From Eubacteriales bacterium (GTDB lineage Bacteria > Bacillota > Clostridia > Oscillospirales > CAG-272), in contig JAZQTY010000203.1 in NCBI GenBank assembly GCA_045631025.1, positions 1 through 40,793 of the forward strand: a stretch of DNA of 40,793 bases, in the 5' to 3' direction. How positions within the stretch are numbered: position 1 is the stretch's first letter; each line of letters starts with the position of its first letter. Positions 4,934 to 27,466 of the stretch are shown here, in pieces. The notes below the pieces were generated by a model. The model searched no databases. It saw only the letters and a list, made by a program, of their open reading frames with translations, and was not told the DNA's origin. Made by a program: the position numbers and the translations under genes.

Positions 4934-6409
4934 ATGAAAAGAACAATTACACTTTTAGTGGTAATTTTAATGCTTTTGCCTATAATGGTGTCTTGTTTAG
5001 ATAATACCGAAGAGGTTGGTGAAACTGAATCTTTGGTAGAAGAAGATGACGGATTGCTGTTGAGCGACAAGGTCAGAGACGTTAAGTTCAACGGAGAGGA
5101 CATCAATATATGGCAGGTCACCATAGCAACTAATGCGGCTGAATATTTTTACGATATGAACGGTGACTTTGAGGGAGATATTATTTCCCAAGAAATATTC
5201 AGAAGAAACGTAGCAGTAAAGGATTATTTAAACGTCAATATAAACTTTATTGACGGAGGCGCGGAATCCAGCAACGCGGCAACCGATTGCCGTCCTCTTT
5301 TGCAATCGGACTCTGGAGAGTTTGACGCATACGAGCTTATTCAGTGGAATGGAATGAGTCTTGTTATCGAGGGGTGGTTCAAAAACCTTGACGATTCGAA
5401 GTATCTTGATTTTGAAGGCGAGTGGTGGTCTGAGGATTTTATGGACGCCGCAAAGATAAACGGTCACAACTACGTAATGGCGGGTGACATCGGCATAGAT
5501 ATGGTAAGCTGCGCAGCCTCAATATTCGTTAACAAGAATATGCTTGCTAAATATCACGGTGAGAACGCCTACGAGGAATTGAGAACGATGGTTCTTGACG
5601 GCAAATGGACTATCGAGGAAATAACCAAGCTCTCTAAAGATACGTACGACGATTTGAACAGAAACGAAGTAGTGGATCTTGAGGATCAGTTTGGATTCCT
5701 TTCGAGTCAGAATCACATCGACGGCTGGTATTTCGGAGCAGGCGGTACTACCATAGTGCGCGACAACGAGGGCAAGGCGGTTCTTTCTATGGGAGACGAG
5801 TACACCGTAGACGTTATGGAGCGTCTGTATCGCGTTATGCACGTGGAAAGCCCCAATGATTACGGAAACAATGCAGGCACGGTACAGATATACAATAACA
5901 AGCATCAGTCAACGCTTGTAGAGAAATTCTCTAAGGGGGAGATGATGTTCTGCATAGGTTATCTGTATACGTCAAGAAATCTCACCAATATGGATGACAA
6001 GTTTGCTCCCCTGCCCTATCCTAAATACAATACCGATCAAGAGGAATACTACTCAATTCTTCACAATATAGTAACGCTGTTTGCAATTCCCACGTCTTGC
6101 GCGAAGTACGATCAGACGAGTGCGTCTTTTGAAGTTATGGCAAGCTTTGGAAAGCAGATGATATTACCTTCTTACTATGAAACGATGCTTAAGATAAGAT
6201 ATCTTGACAACGCAGAGGATGCCGCGCTCGTTGATTTGATCTATAATGCGAGAATGTCGGATATAGGCGTTGTATTCAATTCCAAGGCGTTTTCAATTCC
6301 CCGTAAGATGATACAGGAAAAGAGTATGAATATGTCTCGGTATATTACCACGTACAATAATGAAATTCAAGATGACCTGAACAAGATAAACGGTGTGAAT
6401 TTGTCCTGA
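4934..6409 (+). CDS. Extracellular solute-binding-protein-like lipoprotein (no ABC partner genes in the window)
   Basis: Lipobox (LLPIMVSC). About 490 aa, the usual size of family-1 sugar SBPs. Paralog of 28777..30219 (shared PLPYPxY..Q..YY block). SBP assignment is by overall look only. Confidence 0.55.
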   Translation: MKRTITLLVVILMLLPIMVSCLDNTEEVGETESLVEEDDGLLLSDKVRDVKFNGEDINIWQVTIATNAAEYFYDMNGDFEGDIISQEIFRRNVAVKDYLNVNINFIDGGAESSNAATDCRPLLQSDSGEFDAYELIQWNGMSLVIEGWFKNLDDSKYLDFEGEWWSEDFMDAAKINGHNYVMAGDIGIDMVSCAASIFVNKNMLAKYHGENAYEELRTMVLDGKWTIEEITKLSKDTYDDLNRNEVVDLEDQFGFLSSQNHIDGWYFGAGGTTIVRDNEGKAVLSMGDEYTVDVMERLYRVMHVESPNDYGNNAGTVQIYNNKHQSTLVEKFSKGEMMFCIGYLYTSRNLTNMDDKFAPLPYPKYNTDQEEYYSILHNIVTLFAIPTSCAKYDQTSASFEVMASFGKQMILPSYYETMLKIRYLDNAEDAALVDLIYNARMSDIGVVFNSKAFSIPRKMIQEKSMNMSRYITTYNNEIQDDLNKINGVNLS

Positions 6410-11146: not shown

Positions 11147-11722
11147 TTATTTACCATCAGCTTTAAAGGTTCTATAACATTGATTTCTAAGGAAATCCTT
11201 TATTGACTCAGCATCGATATCCTCATAGTATTTTAACAATAGCTGCTTGAATTCGGGAACGATGCTTTCGGGAACGACCATAAGCCCTGCACCGTGAGCA
11301 ACGAGATAATGATTTGCAAAGATGATTGCCGTTCTCTTGTTACCGTCGTTAAATATCTGTGTTTTCATAACGTACAGAGCAAGCTCGATTGCGATATCAA
11401 GCGCAGGAGCATCCAAGACGAGAATTTTATCAATCTGCTCCTTAACATCATATTCCACGGGCAAAGGGGGAATATAGCTTGAGCCGCCAATCTTTACGGG
11501 AACACCTCTGATTCTGCCACCCTCGTGATAGAAGCCCCCGTTAACAAGGCGAGCAATATATTGGCATACGTAATAGCTTGTGGGCGATTGAACTACATCC
11601 TTATCAAGTACGAATTCCCATGCATGCTTTAAGTTCAATATTTTTTGGACGTCCTCTGCGCTTACGTTGTTAACCTTTCCGTTTTCAATAATCAGCATTT
11701 TGAGCGAAGCGAAAAATATCAT
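11147..11722 (-). CDS. Fic/Doc-family protein with a degenerate active-site motif (QIFNDGNKRTAI)
   Basis: GGRIRGVPVKIGGSSYIPP plus the Doc-like motif xIFNDGNKRTA. No convincing RBS at either candidate ATG (11722 or 11698), and an in-frame TGA lies immediately upstream. Confidence 0.6.
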   Translation of the reverse strand: MIFFASLKMLIIENGKVNNVSAEDVQKILNLKHAWEFVLDKDVVQSPTSYYVCQYIARLVNGGFYHEGGRIRGVPVKIGGSSYIPPLPVEYDVKEQIDKILVLDAPALDIAIELALYVMKTQIFNDGNKRTAIIFANHYLVAHGAGLMVVPESIVPEFKQLLLKYYEDIDAESIKDFLRNQCYRTFKADGK

Positions 11723-13952: not shown

Positions 13953-16900
13953 TTATTTCGCGATAAACTTGGCGTAAACAGGCAAGTGGTCCGAAGGATA
14001 GAGCGTAGGAGCATCCTCGTCGTAGTTGTCTACTACAACGTATTCAATAGCGTTCAAGCTGTCGCCGTTATAGAATATGTGGTCGTATACGTGCGACTGA
14101 CGAGTGGAGTATCCATCTTCTATCAGCGTTCCGCCGACGTTTACTGCGATAGCAGCATCTTCCGCTGCCTGGTCAAGTGCGCCCGTGCCGGTAAGAAGTC
14201 CCTTGGTGGAGTGTGCATTCTGGTCAGAGTTAAGGTCACCCATAACGATCTGATTTGCGCACGTTTCACTCATATCAAGGAGCCAAAGTCTTATAAGCGT
14301 CGCCTGAGCTCTGCGCAAGTACTTGTTGCAGTCAGCGTTAGTCGCTTCGTCGTCGGTGAGCCACGCCTTGTAGTGCAAGTGAGTGTTAACAACGAGGAAC
14401 CTCTCTCCCGTGGTCTTATCCTCAACGAGAACCCATCTGAAGAATCTTCCTTTTGCGTTGTCGCCCTTTGTGTCGTTATCCCAGTCCACTCTGGAGTCAG
14501 AAACGTCGCTGTTGCTTGAATATTTTGAATTCTTCGCAAGCTCCTTGAAATACTCAACGCCGTCATCGATAACGTTAAACTTTGCGGTATTAACAAGGAT
14601 CTCGTTTCCTTCATTGCCGTTTGCGTTAGAGTTGAAACGGGTGTATGCGGAAAGACCGGAAACCTTACTGTACTCACCGTAAAGGTTACTGTCGTCCTCT
14701 TGGAGGCCCACAACGTCAGGCATCATCTCGATAATCGTTTCAAGAGCGTATACGGGATCTCTTCCGTCCCAGCCCGTCTCATTACCGGTTATTTTATCCC
14801 AGAAGTCACCTTCACCGTATGCCTTAATGTTATAAGTCATAACTGTAATAGAAGAAGCCTTGACGCTAAAAGTCTCAAGCATTGCTCTCTGATTCTCGTC
14901 GTAAGGACTGTACTTCGTTTCACCGTGAACGGTTACTGCGTTCTTGTAAGTCGAGTCTGCCTTATCTCTTACGTCGGCCAACGCAACGGATGCAACGTAA
15001 GATACGCTTCTTGAGTTGCTTGACTTACCGTATCCGGAATAGATATATTCAGTCTCGTCGCCACTTGTAACCTTGATATAAAGTCTTGCGGAGAACTCTC
15101 TTTGTACGTTATCCGTCTTAATATTTACCAAAGCGCAGTTTATTCTGTAACTGTCGTTACCGTCAGCCAAAATCGTGTCCGCGTCGATCTCGATATACTT
15201 CGTTTTTGCGAAGCTCCAATTATCGAACGCTTCCTTGGTAAATTCGTCAACATTTTCAAGATACTCGGTGGGAGTGATGAGCATTCCCAGCTTTACGTTG
15301 TCCTCGCCGTAGTCCTTAACGAGTCTGTCGTAGTAGCTGCGGGCTACTGTACCCGTAAAGCGAATTCCCGTGGGATCGTCCATACGAACCGATGCACCGT
15401 CAACAAGCGTTTTCTTGAGTGCGCCGCCGTTTACCGTAACCTCGGAAATGATCGCCTCGTGCGCGTTGTATACAATATCAGAAACTGCGATTGCTATATA
15501 TCTTGCCTCAACGCCACCCATATCGATATTATGAACGTGGCCGTCCTTGCCGTTGTAGGTACCTTCCACGTAAAGAGCATCAGCAGTGCTCTGTTTAGGA
15601 TAAACGTCCTCGAAGGAAGCCCCACTTACTGCATTATAAGACTTTCCATCTGTAGAATAATAGATATCGTATCCGTTGTTAGCCATGTAAGGACGGTTCG
15701 CAGGATCAGAGTCATTCACATACTGTGTCCAAAGGCTGAGCGTGTCTACTTGAGCATAATCCTCAAGCCTAATTACAAATATCAAGTAATAAGACTTGCC
15801 GTCTGCGTCGGGATTTTCACCGTTAGCCATAACTCCGTCCGCATCAAAGTAGCACATTTCGTAGTCCTTAATGGTTTCTCCATTTCTATTGTGATTCGCA
15901 TTCTGTGCATCAGTTGTAATATCTCCGTCAAACGCATTCGATATTGGGTAATCATTGTAGAAAGAGAAATTTTGCGTTGCTCCGGTTTCGGGTACAAGGT
16001 GTCTACCAAATGCATCCACTTTATCTATCTCAATAGCAGTCGGCGTTCCGTGCACGGCGAACTCGAAGAAGATCATATAGTTGTTTGCATCGCCATACAC
16101 TGCTTCGGAAACTGCAATAACAACGTACTTCGCCTTCACGTCTCTCATATCTATGTCGTGAACGTGACCCTTATCAGAGCCGTACATGCTCTCAACGTAA
16201 TAGCCGTTGTTATCCTTGTCGCTATAAACGTTGTTGAATTCTGCGTCCTTAACGGCGTAGTAGTTCACACCGTCCGCGGAGTAGTATATATCGTAAGCAT
16301 TGTTTGACATGTACTCGCCGTCATACGTTCCGTCGTCAAGCACGTGGTCGTAGTAGGAGGTCCAGAGGCTCAACGAAGATACCTCGGTCTCCTCATAAAG
16401 CTCAACCTCGAACAAGCAGTAATATGACTTTCCTGCCGCATCGGCATTATTTGTGCCGCTCATAAGCTCTACAAAGGATTTGTGAGCGAGATTTGCGTCA
16501 GGCTTTGTTTGAGCTTCCGTCATAATATTTCCGTCAAAAGCTCTTTCAGTATTGTAGCTGCCCAAAAAGCCCACTCCGTTTCCGTAAGGCTTAAAGGTCT
16601 TTATATCTCCCTTGGGGGCATCAGTATACTCGCCCTCTACGACTATCTCGGAAAAGATTATATCGGTCGCGTTGTATACAAGATCAGAAACGGCAATTGC
16701 AATATATCCTGCAGTTACGCCACCCATATCGATATTGTGAACGTGACCGCTCTTACCGTTGTAGGTGCCCTCTACGTAAAGAGCATCATCAGTGCTCTGC
16801 TTCTTATAAACGTCCGTAAAGGATGCGCCGTCTACTGCTGTATAAGACGCGCCGTCAACGGAATAATAGATGTCGTATCCGTTATTAGCCATGTAAGGAC

Positions 16901-17975
16901 GGTTCGCAGGATCAGAGTCATTCACATACGGTGTCCAAAGGCTGAGCGTGTCTATTTTAGCATAATCGTCAAGCTCTACTACGAATATTCCAAAATACGA
17001 GGTGCCGATCTCGGCAGGGCCCTGCTTCATGCCGCCGTTTGCATCGAAATGAGTCATAACGAAGTCATCTCTATCAGCTCCCGGCCAGGTCTGCGCATCG
17101 GATGTAATATCACCGTCATACGCCTTGTCTTCGGTCCATACGCGGCTGGGCGGTTCGTTTCTGAAGCTTATGGGCTCATAGTCTTCAACCCAATTTCCGA
17201 ATACCGAAAGCTTATTGATATCAATATAGGGATTTACTACAGGCGTACCCATTACCTCAACCTCGGTAAGGATCGCTTCTGCGTTCGACGCGAGTCCGTA
17301 AACTCCGATAGCGATATATTTAGCAGTAACGTCGTTCATTTCTATCTTGTGAACGTATCCTGCCTGATCCTCGCCGTCAGCATTTACAAACGTTTCGGCC
17401 TTATAGAGGGTTTCATATTTTCCGCCGGTATAAACATCGTAAAATTTTGCGGACTCAATGCCTGCGTCGGTATACGTGCTTCCGTCTTCCGAATAGAAAA
17501 TTTCGTATCCGTCGTTGCACATATACCATTCGCCGTAATAGCTTTCCGGCGTCCACAGATTCAAGGAATCAACCACTACTGCGTAGTCAGCAAGCTCGAT
17601 TATAAAGAAGAGAAAATAATCGTCGCCGTTGTTTGCGCCGTGCTGCATTTTGCCGTTCTCGTCAAGGTAGCAGTATTTATATCCACCACCTTTTGCCTCG
17701 ATTTGAGCATCACTTTCAAAGTATCCGCCGCCGTCTTTTGGCTTTACACCATTCACGAGATCGCCATCAAAAGCGTTTTCAGCAGGATACGAGCCACGGA
17801 ATGCAACATTATATCCATCTGCATACTTTCCAAAAGCCGAAACCTTATTGATCTCCACCTTTTGGCTTGTAGCCTCCTCTGCCGACGCCGTCATAAACGT
17901 GAACGGTATCGCAAGCGCTATCATCAGCACTGCAAGAAAGAGCGATAACGCTTTTTTTAGATTTCGCGTTTTCAT
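13953..17975 (-). CDS. Giant secreted protein: 4 x discoidin/CBM32-like module + conserved middle domain + C-terminal EEP domain
   Basis: Signal peptide MKTRNLKKALSLFLAVLMIALAIPFT. Middle domain GASVRMDDPTGIRFTG...LGMLITPTEYL. EEP motifs MTYNIK, GLQEDD, NTHLH, MGDLNS, DHIFY, YPSDHLPV. Confidence 0.85.
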   Translation of the reverse strand: MKTRNLKKALSLFLAVLMIALAIPFTFMTASAEEATSQKVEINKVSAFGKYADGYNVAFRGSYPAENAFDGDLVNGVKPKDGGGYFESDAQIEAKGGGYKYCYLDENGKMQHGANNGDDYFLFFIIELADYAVVVDSLNLWTPESYYGEWYMCNDGYEIFYSEDGSTYTDAGIESAKFYDVYTGGKYETLYKAETFVNADGEDQAGYVHKIEMNDVTAKYIAIGVYGLASNAEAILTEVEVMGTPVVNPYIDINKLSVFGNWVEDYEPISFRNEPPSRVWTEDKAYDGDITSDAQTWPGADRDDFVMTHFDANGGMKQGPAEIGTSYFGIFVVELDDYAKIDTLSLWTPYVNDSDPANRPYMANNGYDIYYSVDGASYTAVDGASFTDVYKKQSTDDALYVEGTYNGKSGHVHNIDMGGVTAGYIAIAVSDLVYNATDIIFSEIVVEGEYTDAPKGDIKTFKPYGNGVGFLGSYNTERAFDGNIMTEAQTKPDANLAHKSFVELMSGTNNADAAGKSYYCLFEVELYEETEVSSLSLWTSYYDHVLDDGTYDGEYMSNNAYDIYYSADGVNYYAVKDAEFNNVYSDKDNNGYYVESMYGSDKGHVHDIDMRDVKAKYVVIAVSEAVYGDANNYMIFFEFAVHGTPTAIEIDKVDAFGRHLVPETGATQNFSFYNDYPISNAFDGDITTDAQNANHNRNGETIKDYEMCYFDADGVMANGENPDADGKSYYLIFVIRLEDYAQVDTLSLWTQYVNDSDPANRPYMANNGYDIYYSTDGKSYNAVSGASFEDVYPKQSTADALYVEGTYNGKDGHVHNIDMGGVEARYIAIAVSDIVYNAHEAIISEVTVNGGALKKTLVDGASVRMDDPTGIRFTGTVARSYYDRLVKDYGEDNVKLGMLITPTEYLENVDEFTKEAFDNWSFAKTKYIEIDADTILADGNDSYRINCALVNIKTDNVQREFSARLYIKVTSGDETEYIYSGYGKSSNSRSVSYVASVALADVRDKADSTYKNAVTVHGETKYSPYDENQRAMLETFSVKASSITVMTYNIKAYGEGDFWDKITGNETGWDGRDPVYALETIIEMMPDVVGLQEDDSNLYGEYSKVSGLSAYTRFNSNANGNEGNEILVNTAKFNVIDDGVEYFKELAKNSKYSSNSDVSDSRVDWDNDTKGDNAKGRFFRWVLVEDKTTGERFLVVNTHLHYKAWLTDDEATNADCNKYLRRAQATLIRLWLLDMSETCANQIVMGDLNSDQNAHSTKGLLTGTGALDQAAEDAAIAVNVGGTLIEDGYSTRQSHVYDHIFYNGDSLNAIEYVVVDNYDEDAPTLYPSDHLPVYAKFIAK
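15426..17864 (-). repeat. Four tandem type-B (discoidin-like) modules of about 200 aa; modules 2 and 4 are partly near-identical
   Basis: The (A/Y)(F)DG(D/N)..T(D/E)AQ anchor recurs four times. 15681-15723 is identical to 16887-16929 (43 nt, offset 1206 nt). Confidence 0.75.
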
Positions 17976-19639: not shown

Positions 19640-20635
19640 ATGAATCTCGGGAATTACATCTACAAGCATTCTTACTATTTATCGTCCGAGGTTTCACAAG
19701 AAATATACGATTTAAGAGAGATAATCTCACCCAACAGACCCGAGATACAGCCCGATCACGTATATTATACGTCAAGCATAACTATCTCTCAAAAAAACCC
19801 CGAAATCATGAGTATGGGTTTAGGCATATCTTTGTCTCCCCCGGATTCCTATATCAGAAGCAGATGCCGCGAAAAAATGTTTTTGAATTTCATTGTTAAA
19901 GGCAAAGGAACGCTTAACGGAAAGCCCTTTTACGAAGGACAGGCTTACTATACCCTCCCCTATGAAACGCACACCGTCATTTCCGACCCCGTTGATCCTT
20001 ACGTATCCGCATGGCTCTCATTAGAAGGAACTTATGTACAAACCGTATTGGATGAAATCAACAAAAGAGGCTCTCAAAGTATATTACCGATCGAAAACGG
20101 ATCGGATATATTTGAGCTGACTATGACTCTCCTTTATAAAACCAACCTCGGCGAGACCTCGACGTCATATTTGAAATCCCTCATAGATATTTACCTTTTC
20201 TATATAAAGCCGAGCGAAAAGGTCATATCGACGACCGAAGTATTCGCAACCGAGAAAATAGCGCAGATAGTGCGCGAAGCCAAAGCGTATGTCGCTAAAA
20301 ATCTGAAATACGTCACCGTTGCGGATCTGGCAAAGTATCTGCATTACAATAAAAGATACTTTTCCGGCATATTCACCGAGGCTATTGGCATGAATCCATC
20401 TGAATATATCAACGATTGCAAAATGGAATGGGCAAAGAACTCACTTGCCAATTCTGACCTTTCTATTACCGAAATAATGGAAGCGATAGGCTATAATCAC
20501 AGAAACGGATTTACGATAGCCTTTAAAAAGAAATACGGCTTCCCTCCCGCAGAGTATAGAAACAAAATAAAAAATCAAAGCGAGAAATCACCCTCCCTCG
20601 CTTCGGATATGCATACAGACGCAACAGCGCAGTGA
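19640..20635 (+). CDS. AraC/XylS-family transcriptional regulator
   Basis: From ORF 19565..20635. I place the start at ATG 19640 (MNLGNYIYK) behind AGGAGG. The C-terminal HTH is nearly identical to that of 1032..1973. Confidence 0.85.
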   Translation: MNLGNYIYKHSYYLSSEVSQEIYDLREIISPNRPEIQPDHVYYTSSITISQKNPEIMSMGLGISLSPPDSYIRSRCREKMFLNFIVKGKGTLNGKPFYEGQAYYTLPYETHTVISDPVDPYVSAWLSLEGTYVQTVLDEINKRGSQSILPIENGSDIFELTMTLLYKTNLGETSTSYLKSLIDIYLFYIKPSEKVISTTEVFATEKIAQIVREAKAYVAKNLKYVTVADLAKYLHYNKRYFSGIFTEAIGMNPSEYINDCKMEWAKNSLANSDLSITEIMEAIGYNHRNGFTIAFKKKYGFPPAEYRNKIKNQSEKSPSLASDMHTDATAQ

Positions 20636-20656
20636 GCCGTGGCTCACTGCGCTGTT
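20615..20656. repeat. Left 42-bp direct repeat (last AraC codons + terminator hairpin)
   Basis: aca(g)acgcaacagcgcagtgagccgtggctcactgcgctgtt matches 23772..23813 at 41/42 positions. Here it is followed by a T-tract. Confidence 0.9.
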
Positions 20657-20846
20657 TTCTTTTTGGTATTCATTCCACGCCCTCCGCTTGACTTCCAATC
20701 CGAGAGCTCTCCCACAAAAAACAAACTTCCATCATAATCACAAATATAGCTATTATACCAAAAAAGTGCTCATAAAAAGCTTCTTTTATTTTGATATACT
20801 TAATTATACCAATTTGAAAGAGTTTTTTGTAGTTTGATAAGCGACA

Positions 20847-21746
20847 TTAATATCCCAAAAGTGGCTGATCAAAATCCAGCAATATCATATTGATAATATT
20901 CACGTCGTACAGTTGCTCTTTTATACAGTATCCTACTATAATATCAAACTTATTGCTGTTGGAAAGCAAATATCCAAGAGTTCTTAAAAGATGGTTTGTC
21001 TCGTTGATATCCAATTTGAGTGCAATGGCAAAAGCTATTGCCGTTGACTTACTTGGGCGATAATCTTGGTTGCATTTTATTTTTGAAAATATTTTTCTGT
21101 CAACGTTAGCCTGTTTATAGCATTCAACGTCAGTAATACCCTTTTTGTCTATGTAATAAAGCAGTGTATCTGAAAACCCTTTATCCATATTTTTCAAAGC
21201 TTCAATTATAGTATCGCTTTTAATTTGTGGCTGTCCTATATACGGAGCAGCTGCGAAGTCTTTTTTTGGAGGGTCCGATACCTCTCGAGGTGTATTTGAA
21301 GCACTATAAATGCAGCGGCTATATCTTCTATCAATATATCTTCTTATGTTTTCCGAAATATCTTCTGTTGTCTTGCACTTTATAAATTTATGAATCGAAT
21401 TGTATTCATCACTGTTTTCAAAATCGTACTCATAAAGTCCTAAAATACGGTACTTATTTCCGTACTCGTTTTCCTCAAACAAAACAATAATTCGGTATGC
21501 TTTTTCATCACGAAAAAAATCGTAATAAGGCGGTCTTTTGTCTTTGTTGATGTATTCCTCGCTAACGGCATCCTCTGTAATCACTATTTCCCAACCGTTG
21601 TTTTTCTTCAAATCCGAGTTTATAAACCATAACCAAAAGTCGTCAGATAAGCTATATCTGCTTTTTGTAAAGGTCTTGAAATTCGTCTTGAAGGCTTTGT
21701 TTAAGAATTCTGCATGATTTTTTAGATTTACACTATCAATTGCCAT
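20847..21746 (-). CDS. Islet gene 3: unknown N-terminal domain fused to a C-terminal XRE-like HTH module
   Basis: The C-terminal ~110 aa (FSDTLLYYIDKKGITDVECYKQANVDRKIFSKIKCNQDYRPSKSTAIAFAIALKLDINETNHLLRTLGYLLSNSNKFDIIVGYCI) follow a small HTH-regulator pattern common in Firmicutes. Confidence 0.7.
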   Translation of the reverse strand: MAIDSVNLKNHAEFLNKAFKTNFKTFTKSRYSLSDDFWLWFINSDLKKNNGWEIVITEDAVSEEYINKDKRPPYYDFFRDEKAYRIIVLFEENEYGNKYRILGLYEYDFENSDEYNSIHKFIKCKTTEDISENIRRYIDRRYSRCIYSASNTPREVSDPPKKDFAAAPYIGQPQIKSDTIIEALKNMDKGFSDTLLYYIDKKGITDVECYKQANVDRKIFSKIKCNQDYRPSKSTAIAFAIALKLDINETNHLLRTLGYLLSNSNKFDIIVGYCIKEQLYDVNIINMILLDFDQPLLGY

Positions 21747-21774
21747 TTGCTTTCCTCTGACTACAATTTATTTA

Positions 21775-22509
21775 TCAATAATTTGAATATTCCATAGAAA
21801 ATTGCTTGTATATTTTCACTTTTCGAACTTTATTGTTTATTTCTTTCTCCACGATCTCTTGCGGACGGTATATGCCATAAAAGGCATACCCCTCTTTAGT
21901 TTTAATAAATGTTACTCTATCAGACCAATCGTTATGAATGGACCGTGTTTCATTACCAAGCCAAATTTCTTCTATGACATTCCCCTTTACGAAATTAAAC
22001 CAGTGGTAATTTTCATTAAATTTTTCAAAACGGTCATTGTGAGGTATGAACCATACGCTGTATCCCTCCGGGGTACAATTTTTGGCATACATGAGCGTAT
22101 TCATACCAAAATATCCCTTTTTAGAAATTTCCCAATCAAAAAAATTACAAAACTGAACGTATATATCCCTGCTATTTTTCCCATAAGCGGCACCGAACAA
22201 AATCCGTCTTTTTATTTTTTCCGGTTTTTCCCATATTCTGATTGCTTTGCATGAACGCTGATTAATTATATCTATTATTTCAGATTGAATCTTTTTATCA
22301 ACCGCTTCAAGGTGAAATCTGAATTGATCGGGGAAATAAAAATACTTTTCCTCTCCGGTGTCATAAAATTTTACTTTTATGTAGTAATGATTAAATCCCC
22401 CCTCAAATTTGGTCGTATATCCGCAGGTCTTTCCTTTTCTGTCTTTGTCAACGGTTACATCGAATTCTTTATTAAGAAATTCGTTTAATCTTTCATACTT
22501 GGCGAGCAT
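21775..22509 (-). CDS. Islet gene 2: hypothetical protein
   Basis: GGAGGA RBS; starts 18 nt after the gene 1 stop. No family recognised. The C-terminal half loosely resembles the N-terminal domain of gene 3. Confidence 0.65.
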   Translation of the reverse strand: MLAKYERLNEFLNKEFDVTVDKDRKGKTCGYTTKFEGGFNHYYIKVKFYDTGEEKYFYFPDQFRFHLEAVDKKIQSEIIDIINQRSCKAIRIWEKPEKIKRRILFGAAYGKNSRDIYVQFCNFFDWEISKKGYFGMNTLMYAKNCTPEGYSVWFIPHNDRFEKFNENYHWFNFVKGNVIEEIWLGNETRSIHNDWSDRVTFIKTKEGYAFYGIYRPQEIVEKEINNKVRKVKIYKQFSMEYSNY

Positions 22510-22527
22510 TTTCTTCCTCCACTCGTT

Positions 22528-23565
22528 TTAATTGCTGATTTTTACTATATTGTATCCTAATGATTCTGCTCTTTTTATAAACCCATGAATATTCCCTTGA
22601 CCCCATTGCGTACAAACCCAAATAGGCGTATCCAACAAGTATATTGGTGAACCCGAATAGTATCTTTTTTCATAATCTTCCCGACGACTTCTTGCCTCGT
22701 CAGGTTTAGCAACAACACCGCATGACCCTTGCAATCTGTCATAAAAAACAGCCTTTAATTCTCCATATTTGATAGTAGGATTATCTCGAACGTATGATTT
22801 AACTACAGCCTCAACCAATCTTGCCTTGCCGTATATCATTCCCTCGAAACAATATTTCGAATAATCCATGCCCTTCCCTTTTGTAGGCTTATCTACAATT
22901 GGAGGATTAACAATTATAGTTGTTTTAGGCTTTACCTCTATTGAAACATCCTGCAGTGCCGTGTCGATTTCCTTTTCAGAATAAGTACCTTCAAGATAAA
23001 GCTTTATCAATTCTAAAATGGTTTCCGTTGTAAGCTCATCTTTAATCTTTTGAATGTTATTGGAGAAATTATTTTTCGAATCTATAAATTCTTCTATCCG
23101 CTCTGCCGAAAAATTTCCCTTTCGAAGTAGCTCAATGAGCTTTATTCCCTCAGGATTGTTTTCAACAAAGGGTATCTCCCGCCTTTTGATTGTATCATTC
23201 TGGTAGTTATATACGCAAACATATATTTTTTGGCATACCAATATACCGACAGAAATACGCAATTGCCTTAAATAGCTTATCAATTGCTTTTGCATTTCTT
23301 GAGAAAAAGGCATATTATATTGCTTTAATTCAACATCAAACAGATCTTGCCCATTCGTATTTATAATAATATCGGGAATTCCTCTTTCACTTGTGCCAAA
23401 ATTAACTGTTCTCTGCGAATCAACTTCTTTAAGCATTCGACTATACCCGAATATTTCTAAATCTAAAAAATAATCTTCCCATTCCCGTTGTATATTGCTT
23501 TCCCTTAAATTATATAATTCTCGATATCTTGATACTATATAATTCCAATTTTCTGCGTATCCCAT
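22528..23565 (-). CDS. Islet gene 1: PD-(D/E)xK nuclease-fold protein (HsdR-N-like) with an unknown C-terminal domain
   Basis: I place the start at ATG 23565 (MGYAENW) behind AAGGAGA. Core motif GIPDIIINTNGQDLFDVELKQ (PD ... ExK), then QLISYLRQL...GILV, as in type I R-subunit N-terminal-like nucleases. Confidence 0.65.
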   Translation of the reverse strand: MGYAENWNYIVSRYRELYNLRESNIQREWEDYFLDLEIFGYSRMLKEVDSQRTVNFGTSERGIPDIIINTNGQDLFDVELKQYNMPFSQEMQKQLISYLRQLRISVGILVCQKIYVCVYNYQNDTIKRREIPFVENNPEGIKLIELLRKGNFSAERIEEFIDSKNNFSNNIQKIKDELTTETILELIKLYLEGTYSEKEIDTALQDVSIEVKPKTTIIVNPPIVDKPTKGKGMDYSKYCFEGMIYGKARLVEAVVKSYVRDNPTIKYGELKAVFYDRLQGSCGVVAKPDEARSRREDYEKRYYSGSPIYLLDTPIWVCTQWGQGNIHGFIKRAESLGYNIVKISN

Positions 23566-23771
23566 TTTAAAATTCTCCTTATTGTGTTTTGAGTATTCAT
23601 ATATAATATACGCAAAAAATCCCAAAAATACTTTTTATTTTCTAAAATTTTACATGAATTTTTTCACGACTTTATTTTACTATATTTTTTGACTTTTTTG
23701 GTCGTTTTAAAAGCGACATATTGCAATATTTTTTGTCTTTCAGGTTGCTCATGTTTCTTACGTGGCTTCCC

Positions 23772-23813
23772 ACAAACGCAACAGCGCAGTGAGCCGTGGC
23801 TCACTGCGCTGTT
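23772..23813. repeat. Right 42-bp direct repeat; here part of a perfect 20-bp-stem palindrome (23776..23817)
   Basis: acgcaacagcgcagtgagcc gt ggctcactgcgctgttgcgt. Lies 26 nt past the MFS gene stop (23843). Confidence 0.9.
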
Positions 23814-26149: not shown

Positions 26150-27466
26150 TTAGTATATTACGATCTCCGCAATTACCGGCATATGGTCGGAAAGATATCT
26201 TCCGTTTACCTTGCTCTCCTCGTTAAGAGTAGTAAAATATTCGGTCTCGATTCTGTCGCTCGTTACGAAGATATGGTCGAAAATGTAATTTTGACGTTTA
26301 GTTCCTTGCGTACCGTTGATCGTTCCGCCCACGTCTCCCTTCTTTTTCGTAACCGTTGCAGTTCTGTCGAAGCGCTCAAGATTTTCAATGGATCTCAAGG
26401 TTTTACTCGTGGGCACGGAGTTAAAGTCACCAACGAGAATGACGGGCAACCCCTCACACTTTTTACCCTCAAGGAACTTATTAAGATACTGTACCTGCTT
26501 GTATCTTGCGTTATCGTCGTTATTCTCTCCCTGCGCATTTCTGTACGTTACGTGCACGTTAACGAACACAAACTGATTATGCGTAGCAAGGCTTTCAAGA
26601 ACTACGTAAGAAAAACCTCTGTAAGAATTCGACTCCTCGATCTTGGACTCAACGAACGGAGTATTCGTCAAATACTGGAAGCCGGAGGAAACCTTCGTAT
26701 ATTTATCGGCGTTCCAGAATATCATATTAGATACTCCGCTTCCCTTCAATACGATGCCCTCGTAGCAATCGTAATTAGGCATTGCCGCGAGTATTTTTTC
26801 CTTATGAGGACTCATAGTCTCCTGCGTTCCGAAAACGTCGGGAGCCTGCTCCTTTATAAAGTTCGCAAGCGCCGTAATATCTCGCGGAAGCTGTTGGGCA
26901 TCGTCGTAATACATATCGTAAAGAACGTTATACGACATAACCTTAAGGCTATCCTTGGCAAAAGCAACCTTCTCGTTTTTGTCAACCGTAATTACGGTAT
27001 CCGCCCCGTCGGTAGTAACCTTATCAAAGAAAGAGTCTATTACGTTGCAAAGTCCAACGTTATCTTTAGCCAATATATATACGTTCTTTCCGTCGTATCC
27101 GATCATTCCCTCGTCGCAGGTGTCAAAGAACGTAGAAATACTTGCGTCGCTACCCTTTTTGTCTATAAATATCTGATAGCCGTCGCCTGCAAGCTTTTCG
27201 GACTCAAGCTCTATTTCGTATATCTCATTCAATTTAGAATTAAAATACTCAACCGCATGTTCACTCGTTTTTCCACTGTAAACTATGGTATAATCCGTCA
27301 TTTTAACGCCGTTAAGCCTAAAAGTCGGCTCACCGGGCTGCGTCGTCTGCGCTTCGGTATCGCTCGTTTGCACGTCGCCGCCTTGAATTCTGTCGCAAGC
27401 AAACAGCGCCGGAACCAGCATAAGAAGCGCCAATAACAAGCTTAAAAATCTAATTTTACGTTTCAT
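26150..27466 (-). CDS. Lipoprotein with an N-terminal alpha/beta domain and a C-terminal EEP domain (paralog of 9654..10931)
   Basis: Lipobox ALFAC. EEP motifs MSYNVL, GTQET, NVHVT, VGDFNS, DHIFV, LSDHMPV. Confidence 0.85.
   Translation of the reverse strand: MKRKIRFLSLLLALLMLVPALFACDRIQGGDVQTSDTEAQTTQPGEPTFRLNGVKMTDYTIVYSGKTSEHAVEYFNSKLNEIYEIELESEKLAGDGYQIFIDKKGSDASISTFFDTCDEGMIGYDGKNVYILAKDNVGLCNVIDSFFDKVTTDGADTVITVDKNEKVAFAKDSLKVMSYNVLYDMYYDDAQQLPRDITALANFIKEQAPDVFGTQETMSPHKEKILAAMPNYDCYEGIVLKGSGVSNMIFWNADKYTKVSSGFQYLTNTPFVESKIEESNSYRGFSYVVLESLATHNQFVFVNVHVTYRNAQGENNDDNARYKQVQYLNKFLEGKKCEGLPVILVGDFNSVPTSKTLRSIENLERFDRTATVTKKKGDVGGTINGTQGTKRQNYIFDHIFVTSDRIETEYFTTLNEESKVNGRYLSDHMPVIAEIVIY

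Follow-up and report, generated by a model that had tools for sequence, protein, structure and literature searches.

The 40,793-nt contig JAZQTY010000203.1 of an Eubacteriales bacterium (assembly GCA_045631025.1), referred to here as the window, contains an AT-rich island with three stacked genes on the minus strand. These genes, termed g1, g2 and g3, encode a PD-(D/E)xK endonuclease, a protein with a Tudor-like barrel and an SRA-like domain, and a protein in which a second SRA-like domain is joined to a putative helix-turn-helix (HTH) module. A first-pass annotation of the sequence had listed them as a candidate defence or accessory system. This view is supported by the membership of g1 in a nuclease family with a sensor slot, by the two SRA-like readers and by the recurrence of the triad at other loci, and our analysis suggests that the three genes more likely than not form a split, modification-dependent restriction cassette. 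The island and its genes are arranged as follows:

20657-23771, minus strand: AT-rich island of 3115 bp with 33.5% GC, between the two copies of a repeat
22528-23565, minus strand: g1, 345 amino acids (aa), PD-(D/E)xK endonuclease with a C-terminal PDC-S57-type domain
21775-22509, minus strand: g2, 244 aa, Tudor-like barrel, linker helix and SRA-like domain
20847-21746, minus strand: g3, 299 aa, SRA-like reader domain, linker and C-terminal XRE-like HTH module

The intergenic gaps of 18 and 28 nt and the purine-rich ribosome-binding site before each start (AAGGAG, GGAGG and GAGGAAA) agree with the compact organization described at first pass. The foreign composition noted there was also borne out: the island has a GC content of 33.5% compared to 44.2% in the remainder of the window, the minimum among 313 other windows of island size is 38.2%, and the GC content at third codon positions is 0.30-0.35 in g1, g2 and g3 versus 0.44-0.62 in the flanking genes. 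The island was most likely acquired horizontally. Its neighbours are genes for carbohydrate use, coding for GH39, AraC, MFS and PHP proteins. No methyltransferase was found among the three cassette proteins and the nine flanking window genes that were scanned, and domain scans of the three proteins revealed no ATPase or helicase encoded in the island, as had been stated previously. An assembly artefact was considered and rejected, since there is a one-base difference between the two copies of the repeat and other loci have kept the triad.

The protein encoded by the first gene can be divided into two parts:

22921-23565, minus strand: nuclease module of g1, aa 1-215, with the invariant residues D65, E79 and K81
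22540-22890, minus strand: C-terminal 'QWG' domain of g1, aa 226-342, matching the PADLOC model PDC-S57

A word-indexed search returned a g1 family of approximately 30 homolog clusters, from which 30 members were aligned. Because all 30 homologs start at the position corresponding to the ATG at 23565, this codon is the correct start of g1. The residues P64-D65 and E79-L80-K81 are invariant across the 30 family members, and g1 is a PD-(D/E)xK nuclease with an intact catalytic triad. The HsdR-N-like context, which had been recognized together with the PD...ExK core, was recovered for the whole family: all 30 members match Pfam HSDR_N_2 (best E = 3.3e-7), with g1 itself remaining below the curated cut-off (17.6 vs 25 bits) and giving, when searched alone against Pfam, only sub-threshold matches to HSDR_N_2 and PDDEXK_3. 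The family profile found no PDB chain at E <= 10, AbaSI included. We rejected the possibility that g1 is a fragment of a type I HsdR protein, as the 345-aa protein lacks an SF2 helicase/ATPase motor and no HsdM or HsdS is encoded nearby. Gabija, Hachiman and Shedu were rejected because PADLOC returned no matches to them, in line with the earlier view that the layout is neither one of these nor that of a classical restriction-modification system.

In the g1-family alignment, one conserved nuclease module of ~215 aa is followed by varying C-terminal domains. The first-pass annotation had correctly noted the presence of such a domain in g1 but left it unassigned; it matches positions 129-243 of the 245 positions of PDC-S57 only (E = 4.2e-10), and the same model is matched by 16 of the 30 family members, with E-values down to 1e-16 in relatives of g1. 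In the PADLOC catalogue, PDC-S57 is a candidate that consists of one gene, and no mention of it was found in the literature. Six of the 30 members, g1 not among them, match the PADLOC model PD-T4-3, and the C-terminal ~100 aa of P0030 and P0026 match residues ~143-258 of the CMoRE chains 9u75 and 9u7u, with E-values of 8e-8 and 1.5e-7, respectively. PD-T4-3 is CMoRE, a type IV enzyme composed of a GIY-YIG nuclease and a C-terminal sensor for 5-hydroxymethylcytosine (5hmC) and its glucosylated form 5ghmC (PMC12923530; also PMC12366544), and sensing of 5hmC and 5ghmC by this C-terminal domain has been demonstrated experimentally (PMC12923530). The region matched by P0030 and P0026 is the sensor, not the nuclease. 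Another relative, P0184, fuses a g1-type nuclease (E = 3e-58) directly to a domain of the type found at the C-terminus of g2 (g2-C, see below). As a CMoRE-type sensor and a g2-C-type domain are both found at this position, we conclude that the C-terminal slot of the g1 family is a slot for modified-base sensors, and its position in this slot suggests that the QWG domain of g1 is probably a specificity domain. The family as a whole points to a small PD-(D/E)xK chassis of gut Firmicutes, on which sensors are swapped, among them the CMoRE sensor, SRA-like domains and the PDC-S57 domain.

For the second gene, two domains were recognized:

22300-22461, minus strand: N-terminal Tudor/SH3-like barrel of g2, aa 17-70, similar to the C-terminal domains of UvrD/PcrA and the RNA polymerase (RNAP)-interacting domains of CarD/Mfd
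21778-22227, minus strand: C-terminal SRA-like domain of g2 (g2-C), aa 95-244, a widespread mobile domain with 344 representative matches

The statement that g2 matches nothing recognizable holds for Pfam, NCBIfam and PADLOC, which gave no match for g2 or g3, the PHROGs matches being weak or functionless only; likewise, PDB profile searches with shallow alignments of g2, g3 and g1 yielded nothing useful. It does not hold for deep profiles and structure prediction, which uncovered both domains. Close relatives of g2 form five clusters only among 5.8 billion proteins, and an exhaustive HMMER search with the g2 profile returned 344 representatives, most of which are aligned at residues ~95-238 only. 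Judged from these partial alignments, g2-C is a mobile domain. In nine of 40 sampled g2-C relatives, the Pfam SRA model PF18491 gives sub-threshold matches that fall on the g2-C-like region. Other domains found in these 40 proteins are DUF4268, Mrr_cat, NA-iREase1, RQC and GreA/B-C, and g2-C relatives match the PADLOC models PDC-S11, PDC-S02 and mREase_IV. This points to a divergent SRA-like family of 344 representative clusters, which is missed by Pfam at threshold. In a structural model of g2 derived from five sequences, the C-terminal domain was unreliable, with a predicted local distance difference test (pLDDT) score below 50; the AlphaFold2 model from a 40-sequence alignment reached a pLDDT of 91.7. 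The top Foldseek matches of g2 in the PDB are the SRA domains of SUVH5, UHRF1 and UHRF2 with DNA containing 5-methylcytosine (5mC) or 5hmC (probability ~1, target-normalized TM-score ~0.49), and rank 2 in BFVD is an ScoMcrA-like SRA protein. In addition, a trimmed 30-sequence profile of g2-C has its best PDB match in AbaSI (residues 230-309, E = 0.0065), a segment within the SRA-like domain of this enzyme, which is a 5hmC-dependent member of the PvuRts1I family. The N-terminal barrel (aa ~17-70) is confident in both models of g2. It superimposes on the RNAP-interacting domains of CarD and Mfd at an rmsd of 1.8-2.9 A over ~50 residues (Foldseek), and its profile matches the C-terminal Tudor domains of UvrD and PcrA with E = 0.04-0.06. 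The Tudor assignment can be called marginal but consistent.

The third gene also encodes a two-part protein:

21372-21737, minus strand: N-terminal SRA-like domain of g3 (g3-N), aa 4-125, with profile links to P0096 and the g2-C family
20850-21224, minus strand: C-terminal module of g3 (g3-C), aa 175-299, with a predicted XRE-like HTH core at about aa 191-249

At first pass, g3 had been described as a fusion of an unknown N-terminal domain with an XRE-like HTH; the former can now be named SRA-like, and the latter is moderately supported. The g3 N-domain is common to four clusters only. A hidden Markov model (HMM) of g3-N matches P0096 at positions 156-273 (E = 5e-15), the same segment that is matched by Pfam SRA (160-272, E = 4.6e-6), and it matches members of the g2-C family within their g2-C region, with E-values from 5e-7 to 5e-3. 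A motif likeness between g2-C and g3-N had previously been seen by eye. It escaped a BLASTP comparison of g2 and g3 (E = 2.7) and hhalign with shallow profiles (0.2% probability), but is supported by deep profiles, as an alignment of g3-N with the 152-sequence g2-C alignment by hhalign has a probability of 69% and an E-value of 4.4e-5. In the hmmsearch shuffle control for this pair, the observed score was reached by seven of 2000 shuffles. Due to the overlap with SRA in P0096, the matches within g2-C regions and the deep hhalign result, we conclude that g3-N is a second SRA-like domain. The C-terminal module of g3 is joined to a g2-C-type domain in P0094, and from its domain contexts it is a portable unit. 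The g3-C module is also found in 42 gut-phage contig loci (L020-L061, 50-57% identity), where the open reading frames (ORFs) are mostly ~315-350 aa long and lack SRA-like domains. In the copy of phage PV036457.1 (L018, 4587-5621), the one phage copy that was scanned for this domain, an N-terminal Macro (ADP-ribose-binding) domain precedes the g3-C module. This looks like a family of phage Macro-HTH regulators.

A conserved operator-like palindrome lies at both ends of the gene triad:

23674-23719, minus strand: putative promoter of g1-g2-g3, with the palindrome ATGTCGCTTTTAAAACGAC (23701-23719) and a -10-like TAAAAT (23674-23679)
20803-20847, minus strand: second palindrome ATGTCGCTTATCAAACTAC (20829-20847) with an extended -10 box TGGTATAAT (hexamer 20803-20808)

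The first palindrome, with the half-sites GTCGCTT and AAACGAC separated by an N3 spacer, covers the -35 region and is located ~21 nt upstream of the -10-like TAAAAT, and the second copy begins at the g3 stop codon. In L001 and L003, two other loci that contain the triad, the 17-bp 7-N3-7 palindrome reads GTCGCTT-N3-AAGCGAC; the second half-site in the two copies of the window is AAACGAC or AAACTAC. At all three of these independent loci, the palindrome is found ~20 nt upstream of a -10 box, both before g1 and after g3, and the extended palindrome/-10 motif occurs exactly twice in the 40.8-kb window, compared to an expected number of 0.01. Behind the second palindrome, L001 (7853-8494) and L003 (8763-9404) carry a gene for a 213-aa vWA-like protein (VWA E = 0.005) with a DxSGS motif resembling a metal-ion-dependent adhesion site. 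As this fourth gene is absent from the window (20657-20846), the second promoter is an orphan there. An additional TGGTATAAT is present at 20752-20760 of the window. The HTH of g3 is a natural candidate ligand of both palindromes.

A compact, promoter-proximal cassette that looks autoregulated and combines an HTH protein with a conserved operator might also be a toxin-antitoxin or addiction module, which stabilizes the island. In such a module, g1 would be the toxin and the HTH protein g3 an autorepressor, with or without g2 as a neutralizer, and an anti-phage effect would come about by abortive infection instead of a direct attack on modified DNA. The solitary insertion of the cassette amid housekeeping genes would fit this idea, and EVE/ASCH systems are predicted to include HTH antitoxins alongside PUA-like partners (PMC7641849). 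However, the nuclease comes first and the HTH last, the protein sizes of 345, 244 and 299 aa are atypical for a type II toxin-antitoxin system, lone g1 homologs survive with an intact catalytic triad and, in other members of the g1 family, the C-terminal slot holds a proven modified-DNA sensor. We consider it very unlikely that the cassette is an addiction module.

The order of the three genes is kept in the metagenome loci L001-L003 and partly in L004, with 66-72% identity, and there the triad adjoins TrkAH and GDSL-lipase genes, a site other than that in the window. Of the two points that the first-pass annotation had put up for testing, co-occurrence of the triad elsewhere and a position in defence islands, the co-occurrence (L001-L004) was thus confirmed, but the window locus is not part of a defence island. 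A g1 pseudogene in L002 (5160-6177) was rejected, as the split into ORFs of 190 and 113 aa is caused by a scaffold gap (NNNN) and not by a frameshift. Close relatives of g2 and g3 were found next to g1 only. In the more distant locus L063, a 47%-identical g1 and a g2-like gene, which is transcribed divergently and codes for a Tudor-like and an SRA-like domain, are ~740 bp apart and lie between housekeeping genes. Hence g2 accompanies g1 at two levels of divergence, and g3 occurs in a narrow triad clade only. Domain scans of the neighbours in L063 and in L016 and L017, two loci with distant g2-like genes, returned nothing informative. Directly after a 60%-identical g1 homolog, L062 contains an ORF of 162 aa (5632-6120), which shares ~65 aa with the N-terminus of the g2-like protein of L063 (4363-5244; E = 2.5e-4) and by eye looks similar to the C-terminal tail of P0041. 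Small barrel-like modules may thus be a recurrent feature beside nucleases of the g1 type.

The island is bracketed by two copies of a direct repeat:

20615-20656, plus strand: left copy of the 42-nt direct repeat, a perfect hairpin with a 16-bp stem, followed by a T-run
23772-23813, plus strand: right copy of the 42-nt direct repeat, a perfect hairpin with a 20-bp stem, downstream of the MFS transporter gene

The copies are identical at 41 of 42 positions, 3157 bp apart and each form a perfect hairpin; no comparable repeat match occurs in shuffled sequence. The left copy takes in the last 21 nt of the convergent AraC-family gene and, with its hairpin and T-run, looks like a terminator, and the right copy comes after the stop of the MFS transporter gene. 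As the repeat brackets the cassette, we propose that the three genes reside on an insertion of 3115 bp, by which a shared terminator hairpin became duplicated. Such att-like flanking direct repeats are also present in integrase-mobilized islands. No recombinase or transposase was found among the three ORFs of the island or the AraC, MFS, GH39 and PHP neighbours, the remaining window not having been scanned for recombinases. An empty site was not found, the hairpin pattern giving 0 matches in the genome and metagenome contig collections, and no relatives of the MFS neighbour were obtained when seeking it.

One might speculate that g1 itself is a homing-type or otherwise selfish nuclease that serves the mobility of the island and that the hairpin duplication is the footprint of a nuclease-initiated insertion. 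In favour of this, the repeat brackets an island that contains no recombinase or transposase, and genes of the g1 family have inserted singly amid housekeeping genes at many sites unrelated to each other. On the other hand, L001 and L003 have no comparable flanking repeats, an empty site for comparison was not found, modified-base readers have no obvious role in homing, and other g1-family members are carried by conventional mobile elements that contain an integrase and MobL, so that a mobility nuclease appears extremely unlikely. The latter members are distant g1 homologs with other C-terminal variants, such as the CMoRE-type sensor in L007-L009, and their mobile islands carry Dcm methylases, a reverse transcriptase, a UvrD-like helicase, MobL and an integrase. 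In L007-L012, L065 and L066, a peptide deformylase gene precedes the g1-family nuclease by 23 nt (e.g. L010, 6553-6978 and 7001-8002). The deformylases of these loci are 90-100% identical between metagenome-assembled genomes of Clostridia and Bacilli, and the loci are islands of the same kind, in which DUF6119 accompanies the UvrD-like helicase. The deformylase-nuclease pair rides a widely spread mobile element.

Modification-dependent restriction enzymes combine a sensor with a nuclease domain, lack a methyltransferase and are modular (PMC6765204, PMC12923530, PMC12191111). Every part of the cassette fits this sensor-plus-nuclease rule, yet the parts are spread over three genes, and the fusion of reader and nuclease, which is absent from the cassette, is seen only in the relative P0184. 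We therefore propose, with a probability of roughly 0.55, that the island is a type IV-like, modification-dependent restriction cassette split over three genes, with separate readers and a regulator fused to a reader. As a best reading, the system can thus be classified under type IV modification-dependent restriction, in a split form. In this reading, g1 would act as a Mg2+-dependent PD-(D/E)xK endonuclease, a cutter with its own specificity domain. The SRA-like domain of g2 would examine a modified base, in all likelihood a cytosine derivative, after flipping it out, and its Tudor-like barrel is probably a protein-protein adaptor, which would contact g1 or, as in UvrD, PcrA and CarD, RNA polymerase. 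Joining a second SRA-like reader to an XRE-like HTH, g3 would probably bind the palindrome over the operon -35 region and the copy after g3 and thereby restrain the nuclease.

Several observations weigh against this proposal. Every SRA assignment falls under the Pfam curated cut-off, the Foldseek E-values of the SRA matches of g2 are modest (~6e-3), and those for the Tudor assignment of the barrel are marginal (0.04-0.1). The SRA fold also does not by itself determine the ligand; one SRA-containing enzyme is reported to depend on N6-methyladenine (PMC10101028). With regard to the HTH of g3, HTH_3 reaches E = 0.19 in a phage relative of g3-C, an hhalign comparison of g3-C with four classical XRE domains gave a probability of 64% (E = 6.7e-5, 59 in-register columns), and no PDB profile match for this HTH nor a Pfam match for g3 was obtained. 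There is no defence island at the locus, the cassette being a solitary insertion between genes for carbohydrate use. No nuclease gene adjoins the distant g2-like genes of L016 and L017, and g1 homologs with the same C-domain (51-60% identity) stand alone in L005, L013-15 and L062, which indicates that g2 and g3 are not obligatory partners and that g1 can work alone.

These lone homologs speak for the idea that g1 by itself provides the defence, as a type IV enzyme of the PDC-S57 kind encoded by one gene, and that g2 and g3 are separate readers or regulators of modified DNA that travel along, for instance for methylation-sensitive control of transcription of genes in the island or the host. This would agree with the listing of PDC-S57 as a single-gene candidate by PADLOC, with the use of the g3-C module as a portable regulator fused to other sensors, such as Macro in phage PV036457.1, and with PUA-like ASCH-HTH fusions, which are known but uncharacterized (PMC7641849). 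Against it, the only setting in which close relatives of g2 and g3 have been found is beside g1, behind a single promoter and at intervals of 18 and 28 nt, the distant g1 of L063 is again paired with a g2-like gene, and P0184 holds both domain types in one chain. We regard this division of labour as the main rival reading, but as unlikely.

Returning to the split type IV-like cassette, g3 might not only be a repressor but a switch that responds to modified DNA. Modified phage DNA would titrate the SRA-like domain of g3 and lift the repression by the HTH at the two operators, making type IV restriction inducible, and the barrel of g2 would dock the second reader onto g1 or RNA polymerase, thus coupling base inspection to cleavage. 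This more elaborate scheme is speculative and, in our view, distinctly improbable. If it is true, g3 would be a reader-gated regulator of a restriction system, the first of its kind to be described, and the cassette a three-subunit modification-dependent restriction enzyme. A coupling of modified-DNA sensing to transcription by g3 would introduce a new principle of control into restriction and possibly provide a part for biosensors. Modification-dependent nucleases belong to the anti-phage genes that are transferred most readily and serve as tools for 5mC and 5hmC mapping, and in the proposed cassette the readers are separate subunits, one of which is fused to a putative regulator with a conserved operator.

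Apart from the island, the window encodes a Fic/DOC family protein (E = 9e-8; 11147-11722, minus strand) amid otherwise metabolic genes. Two Exo_endo_phos (EEP) proteins (13953-17975 and 26150-27466, both minus strand), one of 1340 aa, flank the glycoside-hydrolase/AraC/MFS region and are probably secreted carbohydrate- or phosphoester-processing enzymes.

Among known systems, the cassette resembles the type IV enzymes PvuRts1I and AbaSI, which depend on 5hmC and its glucosylated form (g5hmC), in that both comprise a PD-(D/E)xK cutter and an SRA-like reader and lack a methyltransferase. Of the sequences in the PDB, the SRA-like region of AbaSI is matched best by the g2-C family profile, and P0184 has the order of PvuRts1I/AbaSI, nuclease then SRA, in one chain. 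Unlike in these enzymes, the readers of the cassette are two in number, reside on separate polypeptides and are fused to a putative HTH (g3) and a Tudor-like barrel (g2), and the nuclease of g1 has no detectable similarity to that of AbaSI and is followed by an extra C-terminal domain. With CMoRE/PD-T4-3, the cassette shares the combination of sensor and nuclease without a methyltransferase, and the CMoRE sensor fills the position of the g1 QWG domain in paralogous members of the g1 family. In contrast to CMoRE, which is a single-gene system, g1 is of the PD-(D/E)xK and not the GIY-YIG type and does not contain the CMoRE sensor. In MspJI, AspBHI and LpnPI and in the SRA-HNH enzymes TagI and ScoMcrA/ScoA3IV, a base-flipping SRA reader guides the nuclease to a modified cytosine (PMC6765204, PMC6212794). 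PF18491 represents the bacterial SRA type of these enzymes, and relatives of g2-C and g3-N approach this model below its cut-off. Unlike the cassette, the MspJI-like and SRA-HNH enzymes are single-chain proteins, and their nuclease types and domain orders differ from it. With type I HsdR, the HSDR_N_2-like nuclease fold is the only feature g1 has in common. The triad as such is not a listed system in PADLOC; the models concerned, PDC-S57, of which g1 matches only the C-terminal half, and PDC-S11, matched by g2-C relatives, are both candidates from bioinformatics.

With regard to control, the closest parallel is provided by the controller (C) proteins of type II restriction-modification systems, small XRE-like HTH proteins that, together with a palindromic operator at their own promoter, delay or limit expression of the nuclease. 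The cassette encodes a putative XRE-like HTH and has a palindrome over its promoter, which would fit this logic. Unlike in C proteins, the putative HTH of g3 is fused to an SRA-like reader and encoded last in the operon, and the operator-like palindrome is present twice. Fusions of PUA-like readers with an HTH (ASCH-XRE) have been noted previously (PMC7641849).

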